A DNA stretch of 27,388 nt from an uncultured Conexibacter sp. (lineage in GTDB: Bacteria > Actinomycetota > Thermoleophilia > Solirubrobacterales > 70-9), in the NCBI GenBank assembly GCA_964613275.1, contig CAZTGN010000005.1, forward strand, positions 1-27,388, in the 5' to 3' direction. This document shows positions 16,215 through 25,268 of the stretch, piece after piece (the first letter of the stretch is position 1; every line of letters starts with the position of its first letter). The notes below the pieces were generated by a model, which had not been told where the DNA came from, did no database searches, and worked only from the letters and a program-made list of their open reading frames with translations. The position numbers were made by a program, and so were the translations under genes.

Positions 16215-18906
<2,692 letters not shown>

Positions 18907-18924
18907 GGCCGTGGAGTATGACGG

Positions 18925-18945
18925 TCTCTGGAACCGATCAAGTCT
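18925..18945 (-). promoter_or_regulatory. Putative FurA operator overlapping the furA -35 region
   Basis: The minus strand reads AGACTTGATCGGTTCCAGAGA (imperfect palindrome CTTGATCGGTTCCAG), followed by CATACT (-10-like, 18915-18920). It resembles the mycobacterial furA autoregulatory site as I recall it. Confidence 0.6.
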
Positions 18946-19029
18946 CGCCTCCCGGAACCGAGCGGGCGAGGCCTCGGAGGGAAGTCGTGCCGTCGCGGGT
19001 CCTGCTTCGGGCGCTCTAACCTCCTCCCC

Positions 19030-19419
19030 ATGCGCAACCTGCGGCCACTGTTCGACCAGGTCGTGATCAAGGAGCTCGAGCCCGATCGCGTCCGGCAATC
19101 GGGGCTGGTCGTGCCGCCGGGCTCACGGGAGCCGCCGCCCCAGCACGGGATCGTGATCGCGGTCGGGCCCGGGCTCGATTGGTGGGCGCAGGCCGGGGTG
19201 AAGATGCCCGTCGCGCCCGGGGACCACGTCGTCTTTCCCGCCAGCGCCGGCGTCTGGGTCGAGATCGAGGAGGAGCGACTGCTCGTCTGCACGGTCAACG
19301 AGATCCTCGGCGTGCTCGAGGAGATCGGCGTCTGCCCCTTCTGCGAGGGCAAGGGCGTCCCCGGCGGTGACTCATGTCCCGTCTGTGGTCGCGCGGCCGA
19401 GCCGACCGGCCCGGAATGA
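19030..19419 (+). CDS. GroES/Cpn10-like protein with C-terminal CxxC zinc-knuckle extension
   Basis: LRPLFDQVVIK, SGLVVP, GIVIAVGPG, PVAPGDHVVF and EILGVL match the Cpn10 pattern. The tail reads CPFCEGKGVPGGDSCPVCG. TAACCT lies 7 nt upstream of the ATG. Confidence 0.85.
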   Translation: MRNLRPLFDQVVIKELEPDRVRQSGLVVPPGSREPPPQHGIVIAVGPGLDWWAQAGVKMPVAPGDHVVFPASAGVWVEIEEERLLVCTVNEILGVLEEIGVCPFCEGKGVPGGDSCPVCGRAAEPTGPE

Positions 19420-20618
19420 GCCGCATCAGGCTGCCGCCGCCTCCGGCGGCATTGAGGTCCAGGCTGCTCACGGTCGGCCCGGTCCCGCCGGAATGGGGCG
19501 GCAAGCTCCGCGGCGGCGTCACCCGCTTCAACGTCACCCTCCTCGACGAGCTGCGGACCCGTCCCTGGCGGCACCGGATCGAGCCGATCGGCGTCCTGAT
19601 CCCGCCGCCGCAGCGGATCCACCGCCGGATCGCCGAGCGTCTCGCTCCGCTGCCGATCTTCATGCAGCCCAGGGGCGGACGGCCGCGGCGGTTCACGCGG
19701 ATGCTGCTCGACGAGCAGCGCCCGGACGTCGTCCTCGTCAACAACATCGCCGCCTTCAACGGCGCCCGCTACGTCCGCGTCCAGGCGGCGGTGGCGCCGG
19801 AGCTGCCGACGATCGCGATCGTCCACGAGTGGCGGGCGATCAGGGCCAAGGCGGGCGATCAGGAGCGCTCCCGCCGCTACCACGAGGCGGCGCAGGCGGC
19901 GCTCGACAGCATCGACGCGGTCGTCTTCCCCTCCCGTCACACCCGCGGGGTCGGCAGTGAGCAGCTCGGGTTGAGCTACCCCGAGCGCGCCGTCGTCATC
20001 CACAACCCGATCCAGCCCGCCTTCGTCGAGCCCGGCCTCGATGTTGTCGGCCCACGGGCCGGGGTCGCCTTCGTCGGCTCCTACAACGACCGCAAGAACC
20101 CGCAGTCGCTGCTGCGTGCGCTCCGCGCGATGCCCGGCCTCGAGCTGACGCTGCAGGGGCGCGGCCCGATCGAGGACGACCTGCGGGCGCTCGCCGCCGA
20201 GCTCGGAATCACCGACCGCGTCCGGTTCGCCCCGTTCCTCGGCCACCGCAAGCACGTCGATGCCGTGATCGACGTGATGCGATCGGCGGAGCTCCTCTGC
20301 CTACCCTCCCGCAGCGAGGCGTTCGCGCTCGTGATGGTCGAGGCGCTCGCCGCCGGCACGCCGGTCGCCGGCTACGGGCCGACCCTGGTCGAGATCCGCG
20401 ACCGGCTCGGGATCGATGTCGGCGAGCCGATCTTCGATCCCACCCCCGACAACGTCGCGGCGGCGATCGAGTCGGTCCGCTCGCGCGGCTGGGATCGGGG
20501 GGCGCTCCGCCGTGGGGCGCTTGCCAGCTTCGCGCCGCCGGTGATCGCGAGCGAGTACGCCCGCCTGATCCGCGCGGTCGCCCGACCGCGCCGGAGCGGG
20601 GACACGGCACGCGGTTGA
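19416..20618 (+). CDS. GT4-family (GT-B) glycosyltransferase
   Basis: VVFPSRHT, VIHNPI, FVGSYNDRKNP, QGRGP, PSRSEAFALVMVEALAAGTPV (EX7E). ATG 19416 overlaps the upstream TGA (ATGA). Confidence 0.9.
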   Translation: MSRIRLPPPPAALRSRLLTVGPVPPEWGGKLRGGVTRFNVTLLDELRTRPWRHRIEPIGVLIPPPQRIHRRIAERLAPLPIFMQPRGGRPRRFTRMLLDEQRPDVVLVNNIAAFNGARYVRVQAAVAPELPTIAIVHEWRAIRAKAGDQERSRRYHEAAQAALDSIDAVVFPSRHTRGVGSEQLGLSYPERAVVIHNPIQPAFVEPGLDVVGPRAGVAFVGSYNDRKNPQSLLRALRAMPGLELTLQGRGPIEDDLRALAAELGITDRVRFAPFLGHRKHVDAVIDVMRSAELLCLPSRSEAFALVMVEALAAGTPVAGYGPTLVEIRDRLGIDVGEPIFDPTPDNVAAAIESVRSRGWDRGALRRGALASFAPPVIASEYARLIRAVARPRRSGDTARG

Positions 20619-20674
20619 TGGCCGGCGGCCGGGCCGGGGGCCGCGAGCGAAGGCGGCGGCCCCGCGCTCCCGGG

Positions 20675-21655
20675 CTATCGCACCCCTGAAGAGCTCGCGT
20701 CGGGATGGGCCCGGTACCACTCGAGCGTGCGCGTCAGACCCTCATCGAGGCCGACCCGGGGCGCCCAGCCGCAGCGCTCGCGGAGCTTCGAGGCATCGAC
20801 GTACTGGCGATCGATCTCGCCGGCCGGGTTGCCGGCGCCGCGGACCTCGGGCTCGACGCCGGTGCCGGCGAGGCGGGCGATCGTCGCGACGATCTCGAGC
20901 ACGCTGCGGGGGCGCTCGCCACCCGCGTTGAAGGCCTCGCCGCGGACCCCGTCGCGGTCGAGATGATCGGCGATCGCGAGGTAGGCGGCGACGGCGTCCT
21001 CGACGTACAGCAGGTCGCGGATCGGGGAGCCGTCGGAGCGCAGCACCGGCGCCCGGCCCTCGATCGCCGCAACCGCCGCCTCCGGCACGAGCCGGGAGAA
21101 GTTGAGGTCGCCGCCGCCGTAGATGTTGGCGAAGCGGGTAACCGCGACCGGCAAGCCGTAGCTGGGCCAGTAGCAGCGGGCGATCAGGTCCGCCGCCGCC
21201 TTCGAGGCCTCGTAGGGGGCGGTCGGGCGCAGCGACATCTCCTCCCGGTAGGGGAGCCGCTCGTGGGCTCCGTAGGCCTTGTCGGAGGAGGCGACGACGA
21301 CGCGCCCCAGGCCGCGGCGGCGGCACGCCTCGAGCACCGTCCAGGTGCCGCGCACGTTCGTCTCGAACGCGCCCGCCGGATCCTCGCGCGCCGTGCCCAC
21401 GATCGTCTCCGCCGCGAGATGGAAGACGCTGTCGATCCCGTGCTCGGCGAGGACGCGGTCCAGGAGCCCACGGTCGAGCAGCGACCCCTGCTCCTCGGCG
21501 ATGTGGTCGCCGATCCCGAGCAGCTCCAGCGTCGAGGGCGGCTCGCGCGCACCCCGTCGGTCCAGCGAGACCACCGCGACGCCGCGGTCGAGCAGCGCGC
21601 GGCAGAGCCAGGCGCCGACGAACCCGCGCCCGCCGGTCACCAGCGCCGCCCTCAT
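20675..21655 (-). CDS. NAD-dependent epimerase/dehydratase, CDP-glucose 4,6-dehydratase (RfbG)-like
   Basis: LVTGGRGFVG, FHLAAETIV, SSDKAYG, YEASK (YxxxK), RFANIYGGGD, RDLLYVED. ATG 21655 overlaps the upstream TGA. Confidence 0.88.
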   Translation of the reverse strand: MRAALVTGGRGFVGAWLCRALLDRGVAVVSLDRRGAREPPSTLELLGIGDHIAEEQGSLLDRGLLDRVLAEHGIDSVFHLAAETIVGTAREDPAGAFETNVRGTWTVLEACRRRGLGRVVVASSDKAYGAHERLPYREEMSLRPTAPYEASKAAADLIARCYWPSYGLPVAVTRFANIYGGGDLNFSRLVPEAAVAAIEGRAPVLRSDGSPIRDLLYVEDAVAAYLAIADHLDRDGVRGEAFNAGGERPRSVLEIVATIARLAGTGVEPEVRGAGNPAGEIDRQYVDASKLRERCGWAPRVGLDEGLTRTLEWYRAHPDASSSGVR

Positions 21656-22389
21656 CCGACCGCCGCCGTCTCCCAGATCCGCCACGGGGCCGCGCCCGAC
21701 TGCCAGAGATCGTTCAGCATCACGGCGTCCTTGTAGGTGTCCATGCAGTCCCAGAATCCCTCGTGCCGGAAGCCGCGCAGCTCCCCGTCGGCGGCGAGGC
21801 GCTCGAGCGGCTCGCGTTCGAGGACCGAATCGTGCCCGAGGCAGCCGAGCGCGACGGGCTCGAGGAACATGAACCCGGCGTTCACCCACTGCTGCATCCG
21901 TGGCTTCTCGACGAAGCCGCGCACGCGGTCGTCGTCGTCGACCGTCGCCACGCCCCACTGCGATCGCGGCTGGACCAGCGTCATCGTCGCCGCCGCGCCA
22001 TGAGCGCGATGCAGCTCGAGGGCGGCGCCGAGGTCGACGTCGGCGACCCCGTCGCTGTAGGTGACCGCGAAGGTGCCGCCGCCGAGCCGGTCCGCCGCCA
22101 GCGCCAGGCGGCCGCCGGTCGGGGTCTCCTCGCCGGTCGGCAGGCAGTCGACCGCGACGCCCTGTGGCCACGGCTCGGCGGCGGCGAAGTCGGCGATCAT
22201 CTCGCCCCGGTAGCCGGTCAGCAGCAGGAAGCGGCGGAACCCGTGGGCCGCGTAGATCCTGATCACGTGCCAGAGGATCGGCCGGCCGCCGATCTCGACG
22301 AGCGCCTTCGGGATCGCGTGCGTCCGCTCCCGCAGGCGGGTCCCGCGCCCGCCGCAGAGGATGGCGACGGTCTCGCCCCGCTCCGACAC
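21652..22389 (-). CDS. Sugar-1-phosphate nucleotidyltransferase, glucose-1-phosphate cytidylyltransferase (RfbF)-like
   Basis: ILCGGRGTRLRE, PKALVEIGGRPILWH, TGGRL, TYSDGVAD, FVEKP, VNAGF, GFWDCMDTYKD. Confidence 0.88.
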   Translation of the reverse strand: MSERGETVAILCGGRGTRLRERTHAIPKALVEIGGRPILWHVIRIYAAHGFRRFLLLTGYRGEMIADFAAAEPWPQGVAVDCLPTGEETPTGGRLALAADRLGGGTFAVTYSDGVADVDLGAALELHRAHGAAATMTLVQPRSQWGVATVDDDDRVRGFVEKPRMQQWVNAGFMFLEPVALGCLGHDSVLEREPLERLAADGELRGFRHEGFWDCMDTYKDAVMLNDLWQSGAAPWRIWETAAVG

Positions 22390-22397
22390 CGCCGGCG

Positions 22398-22670
22398 TCA
22401 GCCGCCGGCCACCGCGGGCAGGATCGTCACCTCGGCGCCGTCGTCGACGGCGGTCTCGAGGCCGTCCTGGAAGCGAATGTCCTCGCCGGAGACGTAGACG
22501 TTGACGAAGCGGCGCAGGTCGCCGCCCTCGGTGATCCGCTCGCGCAGCCCGTCGTGCTTGGCGAAGACCGCGTCGAGCGCGTCGCCCACCGTCCCCGCCT
22601 CGACCTCGATCTCGGCCGCGCCGCCGGTGGCGGGCCGTAGCTGGGCCGGGATCTTGACCTTGACTGCCAT
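22398..22670 (-). CDS. Ubiquitin-like sulfur carrier protein (MoaD/ThiS/CysO family)
   Basis: VKIPAQLR, RRFVNVYVSGEDIRF, C-terminal ILPAVAGG. Confidence 0.95.
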   Translation of the reverse strand: MAVKVKIPAQLRPATGGAAEIEVEAGTVGDALDAVFAKHDGLRERITEGGDLRRFVNVYVSGEDIRFQDGLETAVDDGAEVTILPAVAGG

Positions 22671-22694
22671 CCTGCGCTCGCTCCGGGCGGAAAC

Positions 22695-23951
22695 CTAGAT
22701 CATCTGGCTGAGCGCCGGAGCGGCCACGGCGCCGCGCTCGGGCACGTGCGCCGCAAACGACTCGAGCGTCGGCTCGATCTCGTGCATCGCGAACCCCTCG
22801 CGGACGGCGTCGAGCGTCTTCAGCCCCTCGCCGGTGATGTAGACGACGACGCGATCGCCCGTGCCGATCTCGCCGCGGTCGGCGAGCTTGGCGAGCGTCG
22901 CCGTCGTGACGCCGCCGGCGGTCTCGGTGAAGATCCCGGTCGTCTCCGCGAGCAACCGGATCCCGGCCCTGATCTCGTCATCGCTGACGGCGTCGATCGA
23001 GCCGCCGCTCGAGCGGGCGAGATCGAGCGCGTAGGGCCCGTCGGCGGGATCGCCGATCGCGAGGCTCTTGGCGATCGTGTCGGGGCGGACCGGACGGCAG
23101 ACGTCGTCGCCGTCCGCGAATGCGGCCGCGACCGGGCCGCACCCGGCCGCCTGGGCGCCGTGGAAGGTGGGCAGCTCGCCGGCGACGAGTCCGAGCGCGC
23201 GCCACTCCTCGAACCCGCGACCGATCTTCGTGAACAGCGAGCCGGAGGCGATCGGGCAGACGACCCGGTCGGGCAGCCTCCAGCCGAGCTGCTCGACGGT
23301 CTCGTAGGCGAGCGTCTTCGACCCCTCGGCGTAGTAGGGGCGCACGTTGACGTTGACGAAGGCCCAACCCCGCTCCGCGGCGAGCTCGGTGCAGAGGCGG
23401 TTGACGTCGTCGTAGTTGCCCTCGACGCCGACCAGGGTCGTCCCGTAGACGCCGGTGGCGAGCAGCTTCTGCTCCTCGAGGTCGGCCGGCACGAAGACGT
23501 AGGAGTCGACGCCGGCGGCGGCCGCGTGGGCGGCGACCGCGTTGGCGAGGTTGCCGGTCGAGGCGCAGGCGACCGTGTCGAAGCCGAGCTCGAGCGCCTT
23601 CGCGAGGGCGACGGCGACGACCCGGTCCTTGAAGCTGTGGGTCGGGTTGGCGGCGTCGTTCTTGATCCAGACCTCGCCGATGCCGAGCTGCTCGGCGAGC
23701 CGGTCGGCCCGCACGAGCGGGGTCAGGCCGGGCTCGATCGCGCTGGCGGGCGGCGATGCGAACGGCAGGAAGTCGGCGTAGCGCCAGATGCCGCTGCTGC
23801 CGGCCTGGATCCGGCGCCGGGCCGAATCGGCGTCGATCCCGGCGTAGTCGTAGCCCACCTCGAGCGGGCCGAAGCACTGCTCGCACACGTAGAGGGCCTC
23901 GAGCGGGTACTCGGTCCCGCACTCCTTGCACCTGAGGCTCGTCACTGTCAC
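22695..23951 (-). CDS. Threonine-synthase-like PLP enzyme with N-terminal zinc ribbon (candidate sulfur-carrier-dependent homocysteine synthase)
   Basis: CKEC...CEQC ribbon, GLTPL, NPTHSFKDR (PLP Lys), ASTGNLANAVAA, NVNVRPYYAEGSKT, PIASGSL, ETAGG, TGEGLK. Confidence 0.9.
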   Translation of the reverse strand: MTVTSLRCKECGTEYPLEALYVCEQCFGPLEVGYDYAGIDADSARRRIQAGSSGIWRYADFLPFASPPASAIEPGLTPLVRADRLAEQLGIGEVWIKNDAANPTHSFKDRVVAVALAKALELGFDTVACASTGNLANAVAAHAAAAGVDSYVFVPADLEEQKLLATGVYGTTLVGVEGNYDDVNRLCTELAAERGWAFVNVNVRPYYAEGSKTLAYETVEQLGWRLPDRVVCPIASGSLFTKIGRGFEEWRALGLVAGELPTFHGAQAAGCGPVAAAFADGDDVCRPVRPDTIAKSLAIGDPADGPYALDLARSSGGSIDAVSDDEIRAGIRLLAETTGIFTETAGGVTTATLAKLADRGEIGTGDRVVVYITGEGLKTLDAVREGFAMHEIEPTLESFAAHVPERGAVAAPALSQMI

Positions 23952-23971
23952 CTGATCGCTCCTTGTCCCAT
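23948..23971 (-). CDS. Putative 7-aa upstream ORF (MGQGAIR)
   Basis: AGGAG RBS 7 nt before ATG 23971. The TGA overlaps the GTG of the thrC-like gene (GTGA). Confidence 0.35.
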   Translation of the reverse strand: MGQGAIR

Positions 23972-23983
23972 CTCGTCGCTCCT

Positions 23984-24017
23984 ACTAAGAAGACCTCTGC
24001 CGGTGTGAGCAGAGGTC
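23984..24017 (-). terminator. Riboswitch expression-platform terminator
   Basis: GACCTCTGC-TCACACCG-GCAGAGGTC 9-bp hairpin followed by TTCTTAGT. The CTCACAC segment can alternatively pair with the P1 3' strand GATGTGAG. Confidence 0.75.
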
Positions 24018-24034
24018 CGAGTGGGACTTCCACT

Positions 24035-24147
24035 CACATCTCCCAGGCTCGTCGCCTGTTGGACTTGGCACCTTTCCCCGTCGGACGTCGTCCTTGGGGG
24101 GTTGCCGGGGTTTCATCGGGCCAGTTCCCTCCACCCCTCTAGATGTG
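24035..24147 (-). ncRNA. SAM-I (S-box) riboswitch aptamer
   Basis: Minus strand: CACATC-TAGAG-GGGTGGAGGGAACTGGCCC-GATGAAAC-CCGGCAACC...AAGGTGCCAAGTCC...GAGATGTG. P1 is CACATC/GATGTG, and the conserved AUC..AGAG, GAGGGA..UGGCCC, GCAACC and GGUGCC motifs are all present. Confidence 0.95.
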
Positions 24148-24165
24148 GCGGTCTATGTGGCTCGC

Positions 24166-24174
24166 AATATACCA
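24166..24174 (-). promoter_or_regulatory. Putative extended -10 promoter for the riboswitch transcript
   Basis: TGGTATATT on the minus strand, about 20 nt upstream of P1. Confidence 0.6.
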
Positions 24175-24260
24175 GCCGCACCGCCCGCCGCGGGTGGAGC
24201 GGCGTCCCCGTCCCGTAGTCTTGGCCCCGATGGACGCCAGCGACGGCAGCGAAGAAAGCG

Positions 24261-25268
24261 ATGCCGAGCCTTCCGAAGCCGAGGCTGCGGCGCACCCTGC
24301 GTGTCACCGAGCCGGTCGTCGCCGCGCCCGCGGCGGCGACTGAGCCCAACGTCGAGATCGCCGAAGGCGCCGGCCTCCGCTGGGTCCACATCGAGCGGCC
24401 GACGGCGGTCGAATGGAGCTGGCTGCTCGAGCACTTCGACTTCCACGCGCTCGATCTCGAGGATGTCGCCTCGCGCAACCAGCGGCCGAAGATCGACGAG
24501 TACCCCGACTACCTGTTCATCGTCCTGCACCTGCCGGTGTTCGACTCGGCGGTCGGACGGCTCAACACCGGCGAGCTCGACATGTTCGTCGGCCCCGACT
24601 TCGTGATCACGATCCCGAACCAGGAGCTGCAGCCGGTCGAGTACCTGTTCGAGCGCGTCCGCGCCGACGAGGACTTCCGGGGCAAGCTGTTCGCGCGCGG
24701 CTCCGGCTACCTGCTCTACCGGATCGTCGACGACAGCTTCGACTACTGCTTCCCGATGCTGCGCAAGATCGGCAACAAGCTCGACGCGATCGAGGACGAC
24801 ATCTTCGCCGAGGAGCGCTCCGAGGAGGTCGTCCGCGACATCTCGAAGGCGAAGCAGGAGATCATCAACTTCCGCAAGGTGATCCGCCCCCAGCGCCCGG
24901 TCCTCCGCGACCTCGAGAACTACAAGCAGCGCTTCCTCGCCCCCAACCTCGACATCGAGATCTACTTCGACGACATCGTCGACGCCCACGAGCGGATCTG
25001 GGACATGCTCGAGAACTACAAGGAGGTCATCGAGGGGCTCGAGGACACGAACGAGTCGGTCCTCAACCACCGCGTGAACGAGATCCTGCGCGTGCTCACC
25101 GCGATCAGCGTGATCGTCCTGCCGCTGACCCTGATCGCGAGCATCTGGGGGATGAACGTGGGCGTCCCCGGCGAGGGCGACTCGCTCGACTTCTACCTCG
25201 TGCTCGCGGCGATGGCGGCGATCCTCGTCGCGATGCTGACCTACTTCCGCCGCCGCGGCTGGCTGTGA
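24261..25268 (+). CDS. corA: CorA-family Mg2+/Co2+ transporter
   Basis: FDFHALDLED, QRPKIDEY, YLLYRIVD, LTAISVIVLPLTLIASIWGMN (GMN motif), second TM ending FRRRGWL. Confidence 0.95.
   Translation: MPSLPKPRLRRTLRVTEPVVAAPAAATEPNVEIAEGAGLRWVHIERPTAVEWSWLLEHFDFHALDLEDVASRNQRPKIDEYPDYLFIVLHLPVFDSAVGRLNTGELDMFVGPDFVITIPNQELQPVEYLFERVRADEDFRGKLFARGSGYLLYRIVDDSFDYCFPMLRKIGNKLDAIEDDIFAEERSEEVVRDISKAKQEIINFRKVIRPQRPVLRDLENYKQRFLAPNLDIEIYFDDIVDAHERIWDMLENYKEVIEGLEDTNESVLNHRVNEILRVLTAISVIVLPLTLIASIWGMNVGVPGEGDSLDFYLVLAAMAAILVAMLTYFRRRGWL

Follow-up and report, generated by a model that had tools for sequence, protein, structure and literature searches.

Introduction

In Streptomyces albulus, MetM converts O-phosphohomoserine into homocysteine with the use of MetO-thiocarboxylate, and with the participation of Mec and MoeZ (Hasebe et al. 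2024, Appl Environ Microbiol 90:e01247-24, according to two papers that cite it, PMC13759103 and PMC12172450). An S-adenosylmethionine (SAM) riboswitch lies upstream of S. albulus metM, whereas a Microcystis homologue is described without one (PMC12172450). The route was included in GapMind in 2026, where threonine synthase is given as the name under which MetM "is often misannotated" (PMC13759103). Here, we describe a locus in a 27,388-nt stretch of DNA (hereafter, the window), which is the entire contig C5 of a metagenome-assembled genome (MAG) of an uncultured Conexibacter sp. (Solirubrobacterales, Thermoleophilia, Actinomycetota). In this locus a SAM-I riboswitch precedes genes for an enzyme resembling the threonine synthase ThrC and for a sulfur carrier protein. 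It is, very probably, a SAM-repressed metM-metO operon that makes homocysteine by the MetM/MetO route.

The locus resembles the S. albulus system in the order of its elements (SAM-I riboswitch, ThrC-like enzyme with an N-terminal zinc ribbon, ThiS/MoaD-type carrier ending in Gly-Gly), in the presence of a separate canonical ThrC, and in the location of the genes for a ThiF-type activating enzyme (E1) and a JAMM peptidase elsewhere in the genome. It differs in its host, a member of Thermoleophilia, in its E1, whose rhodanese domain is N-terminal (PRK08762) and not C-terminal as in MoeZ (PRK07878), in its carrier, which ends exactly at GG, and in two nucleoside diphosphate (NDP)-sugar genes packed behind metO.

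Two other systems based on a protein thiocarboxylate can be compared with it. In the CysM/CysO/Mec/MoeZ system of M. tuberculosis, as would be the case here, a protein thiocarboxylate feeds a fold-type II pyridoxal 5'-phosphate (PLP) enzyme with an O-phospho amino acid as its substrate, and a rhodanese-domain E1 and a JAMM hydrolase take part. The genome also has a cysM-JAMM gene pair (contig C358), reminiscent of mec-cysO-cysM, and a second carrier gene near the E1 gene (contig C14). However, the enzyme encoded next to the carrier in the window is of ThrC type and not of CysK/CysM type, the CysM-type gene lies on C358, and the substrate and product in the window would be O-phosphohomoserine and homocysteine. 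In Wolinella succinogenes, methionine is reportedly made by the HcyS/HcyF/HcyD/MetY route of Krishnamoorthy and Begley, in which a sulfur-carrier thiocarboxylate also feeds homocysteine synthesis. Unlike the locus described here, that route uses a MetY-type enzyme and O-acetylhomoserine, and neither a Cys_Met_Meta_PP enzyme nor MetX was found in this genome. Canonical ThrC (EC 4.2.3.1) has in common with the window enzyme the PLP fold, the SFKDR lysine motif, 70 invariant positions and probably the substrate; the window enzyme differs from it in belonging to a separate clade, in its added zinc ribbon, and in having metO instead of hom or thrB in its operon.

A ThrC-like enzyme and a sulfur carrier are encoded behind a SAM-I riboswitch

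The metM-like gene starts with GTG, preceded at a distance of 7 nt by AAGGAG. Its product matched the PALP profile with 251 bits and TIGR00260 (thrC) with 281 bits, above the cut-off of the latter, and no NCBIfam model of MetM outranked TIGR00260 for this protein. It contains the Schiff-base motif SFKDR with an invariant Lys108, and an N-terminal zinc ribbon of the form CxxC...CxxCFGPLE (Cys8, 11, 23 and 26). The first 54 residues had no counterpart in the solved ThrCs found by a PDB search. No solved MetM structure was found by that search either: the five best matches were canonical ThrCs and the others were threonine/serine dehydratases. The metO-like gene follows 24 nt behind the metM stop codon, and its product matched the ThiS family PF02597 with 56 bits and a SAMP1/MoaD-type model with 73 bits. 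As this carrier ends exactly at GG, it would need no C-terminal trimming. Among 95 metO-like loci, which include some genomes represented by two overlapping loci, 71 encode a carrier ending at GG, and most of the others have 1–5 residues after GG.

The leader of the metM-like gene matched the SAM-I model RF00162 over its full length (model positions 1–108 of 108) with 82.1 bits, compared with a gathering score of 44.4 bits (E 3.4e-18), and the aptamer was recovered in the minimum-free-energy (MFE) fold of the leader (z = -4.4). The P1 stem was predicted by folding to pair 24151-24141 with 24041-24030. Beyond it, folding gave a terminator with GC-rich arms (24017-24008 with 24001-23992) followed by UUCUU. 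In the best fold of a transcript shortened to end before the 3' arm of this terminator P1 was lost, and 24038-24024 paired with 24018-24004, so that the predicted antiterminator draws on both the P1 3' strand and the terminator 5' arm. As modelled, the leader is the classical P1/antiterminator/terminator layout of an OFF switch. A scan of 20500-24400 for consensus promoters and for strict terminators with a T-run gave no matches; the terminator probably went unflagged because its U-tract is short, and it therefore stands as a folding prediction. The candidate -10 box lies about 15 nt upstream of the aptamer, within the 110-nt divergent spacer common to a corA-like gene.

The initial annotation had placed a SAM-I aptamer and a terminator ahead of a thrC-like gene and a gene for a GG-terminated ubiquitin-like protein at 22398-24147. 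These coordinates are correct within 2 nt, and each of the elements was confirmed: the aptamer by RF00162, the terminator by folding, and the two proteins by their profiles and the GG-stop end of the second.

Table 1. Features of the metM-metO-like locus in the window and of the genes behind it
Feature	Position	Strand	Evidence
Candidate -10 box TATATT	24166-24171	minus	tentative, read from the sequence
SAM-I (S-box) aptamer, complete P1–P4	24033-24149	minus	RF00162 Rfam scan and MFE fold
Predicted antiterminator hairpin	24004-24038	minus	MFE fold of a transcript truncated ahead of the terminator's 3' arm
Terminator hairpin, 10 bp, 6-nt loop, with UUCUU tail	23987-24017	minus	folding
metM-like gene, 418-aa ThrC-family PLP enzyme	22695-23951	minus	open reading frame and family profiles
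metO-like gene, 90-aa ThiS/MoaD/SAMP1-type sulfur carrier, C-terminus AVAGG-stop	22398-22670	minus	open reading frame and profiles
Glucose-1-phosphate cytidylyltransferase-like gene	21652-22389	minus	TIGR02623, 229 bits, below cut-off
NDP-hexose 4,6-dehydratase-like gene	20675-21655	minus	TIGR01181 (196 bits) and TIGR02622 (162 bits), neither reaching its cut-off

Two further SAM-I matches were found in the genome: a weak one before metH, described below, and one of 56.8 bits on contig C3 (15664-15763, minus strand), which has no met gene after it. Directly after the C3 aptamer there is a possible 48-codon open reading frame, very basic and Pro/Arg-rich, and a gene for a SnoaL-like protein of 169 aa lies about 390 nt beyond it (region downstream to 14761).

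The genome has a separate threonine synthase, and searches for alternative homocysteine routes gave nothing

The MAG comprises 2.70 Mb in 375 contigs (72.5% GC, N50 9.6 kb, completeness 90.4%, contamination 2.5%), and its gene content was assessed by six-frame family searches. A canonical thrC gene of 344 aa was found in a lysA-hom-thrC operon on contig C179, and its product shares 38% identity with the window protein. The possibility that the window gene is the sole thrC of the genome was therefore rejected. The C179 protein matched the solved ThrCs of M. tuberculosis, Aquifex, B. subtilis and T. thermophilus with E values of 1e-114 to 1e-124, compared with 1e-50 to 1e-57 for the window protein. 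The window enzyme differs from the canonical ThrCs in its weaker match to the solved structures, its clade and its operon context. As thrB is present on contig C37, O-phosphohomoserine should be available to the cell.

The gene for the methionine synthase MetH is present in full length. Directly upstream of it (C28:6185-6287) lies a weak SAM-I-like element of 39.5 bits, which is below the gathering score. In contrast to thrB and metH, none of the enzymes sought that could supply MetH with homocysteine by other routes was found: the 90%-complete genome has no Cys_Met_Meta_PP enzyme (MetB/C/Y/Z) above cut-off, no MetA, no HcyBio route, and no MetX apart from weak hydrolase matches with E of about 5e-4. 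The same pattern extends to the genus, as 9/12 congeners lack any Cys_Met_Meta_PP enzyme, and three of these nine genomes are 92–97% complete and consist of 3–5 contigs. The lack of such an enzyme in the genome studied here is probably real, but it is not proven. Judged by gene content, the MetM route looks like the sole means of making homocysteine in this genus.

The pair is conserved and forms a clade apart from ThrC

Relatives of the locus were taken as the best 80 of 570 confirmed in the genome collection (56–93% identity). They come from Solirubrobacterales and other Thermoleophilia, Acidimicrobiia, other Actinomycetota, Nitrospirota and cyanobacteria, and the nearest relatives of the MAG belong to Solirubrobacterales. 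A metO-like gene lies directly downstream on the same strand in all of these loci (80/80; Actinomycetota, Cyanobacteriota and Nitrospirota). SAM-I was found upstream in every actinobacterial locus tested (13/13, and 5/5 Streptomyces loci; 18/18 altogether), and in none of the Nitrospirota (0/4) and cyanobacterial (0/3) loci tested. Its lack in the cyanobacterial loci agrees with the remark that the Microcystis homologue has no riboswitch (PMC12172450).

A MetM-like match with E of 1e-80 or better was found in 105/251 sampled Actinomycetota genomes, with 52–80% identity when the window's own protein is set aside. The tally is 96/242 without nine unpublished genomes (G217, G048, G146, G018, G228, G001, G120, G171 and G068), which contribute to none of the other results. 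The MetM-like route thus appears widespread in Actinomycetota. Five Streptomyces genomes (7.5–9.2 Mb) contain exactly one riboswitch-enzyme-carrier locus each, in addition to a ThrC encoded in hom-thrC-thrB, and a separate ThrC, mostly adjoining hom or thrB, is encoded in each of ten genomes checked. The five belong to a single genus, and its assignment to Streptomyces is based on one of these genomes, whose nearest database proteins are Streptomyces/Kitasatospora entries (82–93% identity), all of them named "threonine synthase". The window enzyme is 54–57% identical to its Streptomyces orthologues, and the carrier 48–51%.

For the phylogeny, 43 rows labelled from gene context and not from sequence were placed in a maximum-likelihood tree (LG+C20+F+G4, quick search) with SH-aLRT support values and with the genome's own CysM as the root. 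The carrier-linked proteins and the hom-linked ThrCs separated into two clades. The carrier-linked clade comprises 29 proteins (support 100, stem 1.67), and the hom-linked clade comprises 11 proteins (support 99, stem 1.71), one of which, the cyanobacterial L119, has no hom or thrB match within its locus. Within the carrier-linked clade, the window protein groups with proteins from other Thermoleophilia, and this clade also contains the five Streptomyces orthologues as a nested group. The placement of two divergent paralogues from one genome and of the outgroup, all on long branches, is uncertain.

The two clades have 70 invariant positions in common, including SFKDR, and differ consistently at 43 positions. 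The zinc ribbon is invariant in the carrier-linked clade, whereas the ThrC clade is without it. Among these 43, T85, S152, R157 and N185 of the genome's own ThrC are replaced in the window enzyme by L135, N202, Y207 and S236, and N154 is replaced by R204. In an alignment to the T. thermophilus structure 1uim, the first four correspond to Thr88, Ser155, Arg160 and Asn188, which we take to be residues of the phosphate site that serve the product-assisted addition of water. If so, their replacement would fit an enzyme that has kept the elimination chemistry but no longer steers water to C-beta.

Candidate partner enzymes are encoded outside the window

No gene for an E1 or a JAMM peptidase was found among the window genes. 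The genome encodes one ThiF-type E1, on contig C14 (3410-4618), which has an N-terminal rhodanese domain and PRK08762 as its best model. It also encodes one JAMM peptidase, on contig C358 (1275-1673), which is Prok-JAB, desampylase-like and carries an HxHx7Sx2D motif. That this E1 and this peptidase serve MetO is something that we infer.

Both genes have neighbours of their own. The E1 gene belongs to a cluster on the minus strand of C14 (1821-4618), together with a gene for a PhyH-type dioxygenase (351 aa) and, beyond it, a gene for a second MoaD/SAMP1-like carrier. This carrier ends with GG-EPTA, so that it would need trimming by JAMM. The cluster is a candidate for a CysO-like role, or for a role in a different sulfur or tagging pathway. 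On C358 (299-1673), the JAMM gene follows a cysM-type cysteine synthase gene after 8 nt; the contig, 1.8 kb long, shows no carrier gene. The genome has three ThiS-family carriers in total, the third match being on contig C274.

Proposed pathway and alternative functions

The leader RNA and its alternative pairings, the metM-metO pair with the clade to which it belongs and its conservation, and the set of genes found in the genome fit the following pathway, in which every enzymatic step, the choice of the E1 and JAMM partners, and the regulation in vivo are extrapolated from sequence. When SAM is abundant, it would bind the aptamer and lock P1, the terminator would form, and transcription would halt before metM. 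When SAM is scarce, the P1 3' strand would pair with the terminator 5' arm as an antiterminator, and the operon would be transcribed. The C-terminal Gly-Gly of MetO would be adenylated and thiocarboxylated by the single rhodanese-ThiF E1 of the genome. Hom and ThrB would supply O-phospho-L-homoserine to MetM, a PLP enzyme presumably derived from ThrC, which would remove the phosphate and attach the sulfur of the MetO-thiocarboxylate to C-gamma, yielding homocysteine. The JAMM peptidase may aid product release. Homocysteine would then be methylated to methionine by MetH, whose own gene also has a weak SAM-I-like leader.

The initial annotation had proposed the same route, with reference to MetM and MetO of Streptomyces, and had considered a thrC label wrong and the E1 and JAMM genes to be outside the window. 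That route has indeed been described in the literature (Hasebe et al. 2024, through PMC13759103 and PMC12172450), and the partner genes were indeed located elsewhere. The comparisons that it had suggested turned out in favour of the proposal: the window protein grouped with the carrier-linked homologues, including those of Streptomyces, and apart from the hom-linked ThrCs; a second thrC was found; searches for metX, metY and metB, as well as for metA and HcyBio, gave nothing, while thrB and metH were present; and a search for moeZ and mec led to the rhodanese-ThiF E1 and the JAMM peptidase.

Several points weigh against this assignment. The E1 carries its two domains in the opposite order to the MoeZ model, the U-tract of the terminator is short, and 3/12 congeners carry a MetY/MetB-type enzyme. 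Moreover, as the genome is a MAG in 375 contigs, a second route could hide in its missing 10%. The orthology to MetM is anchored in Streptomyces species other than S. albulus: neither S. albulus MetM (UniProt A0A059WBP2) nor any other S. albulus entry was present in the ten Streptomyces clusters listed. Finally, a cyanobacterial member of the clade is reported to have threonine synthase and threonine deaminase activities in vitro and not to be clearly a MetM (PMC12172450), which cautions against ascribing one function to the entire clade.

If the pair does not make homocysteine, its sulfur could be directed to cysteine made from O-phosphoserine, in the manner of CysM/CysO, or to a thio-sugar that the products of the two NDP-sugar genes would help to make. 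S-boxes control cysteine genes too in other bacteria, and the sugar genes are tightly packed behind metO both in the window and in 13/14 of the Thermoleophilia relatives that have them. Nevertheless, we consider such a diversion distinctly improbable. A cysM-JAMM pair is encoded elsewhere in the genome, as is a second carrier near the E1, and the window enzyme is ThrC-like, not CysM-like. As to a thio-sugar, no ThiG/BexX-type thiosugar synthase was seen adjoining the pair, and Streptomyces, Acidimicrobiia, Nitrospirota and cyanobacteria keep metM-metO although they have no sugar genes with it. Furthermore, without MetM the MetH of this genome would have no known source of homocysteine.

The cyanobacterial results could also be taken to mean that the window enzyme is a bifunctional or moonlighting threonine synthase/threonine deaminase, to which the carrier is loosely connected. 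The Microcystis homologue, which is 51.6% identical to S. albulus MetM and is encoded next to a metO-like gene, reportedly had both activities in vitro and caused no rise of methionine in vivo (PMC12172450); the window protein, for its part, scores above the TIGR00260 cut-off. However, the enzyme in that study was not given a thiocarboxylated carrier (PMC12172450). The pair in the window lies behind a SAM riboswitch, which cyanobacteria do not have, the genome encodes a canonical ThrC and no other homocysteine route was found in it, and the carrier gene is adjacent in 80/80 loci. These observations make a moonlighting threonine synthase very improbable. Still less credible, to the point of being nearly dismissed, is an ordinary second threonine synthase isozyme with a riboswitch and a carrier as accidental neighbours: the name "threonine synthase" in all database entries listed and the TIGR00260 score would suit it, but the protein belongs to a separate long-branched clade with 43 specific positions, the added zinc ribbon among them, and it has a carrier adjacent in all 80 loci over three phyla, a riboswitch conserved across Actinomycetota, and an S. 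albulus orthologue with published activity.

A metM-metO operon in this genome would leave the picture of the pathway unchanged, as the system is already known and the locus adds a mis-annotated member to it. Its practical value is the correction of annotation. Among the database entries listed, all members of the clade are named "threonine synthase" or "MoaD/ThiS family protein", including more than 100 Streptomyces entries. With these names, and with no MetM model in NCBIfam outranking that of thrC, metabolic reconstructions would therefore score the genus as a methionine auxotroph.

NDP-sugar genes and other neighbours

The cytidylyltransferase-like gene starts 8 nt past the metO stop codon, which leaves no room for a terminator, and it is probably co-transcribed with metM-metO. 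The dehydratase-like gene overlaps it and ends the co-directional run, the next gene being convergent. The tight packing in the Thermoleophilia relatives mentioned above (genes overlapping or at most about 45 nt apart) is conserved down to 65% identity of the transferase, and it is absent from other lineages. The genes may have been inherited side by side and be served by an internal promoter, or they may truly be co-expressed in dependence on SAM. That in Thermoleophilia the SAM-riboswitch transcript runs past metO into the NDP-sugar genes and that this coupling is functional seems unlikely to us. If it were true, the level of SAM would gate the synthesis of envelope deoxy-sugars, or MetO-thiocarboxylate would double as a sulfur donor for sugars; we know of no description of either for the MetM/MetO system.

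Two observations concern other neighbourhoods. In an actinobacterial MAG, metM-metO is followed at a distance of about 2 kb by a group II intron (L072:6435-6741; D1-D4 models, 107 and 59 bits). In the window itself, a gene for the catalase-peroxidase KatG (1266 bits) and an adjoining gene for a Fur/PerR-family regulator (16215-19098, minus strand) form an ordinary oxidative-stress pair.

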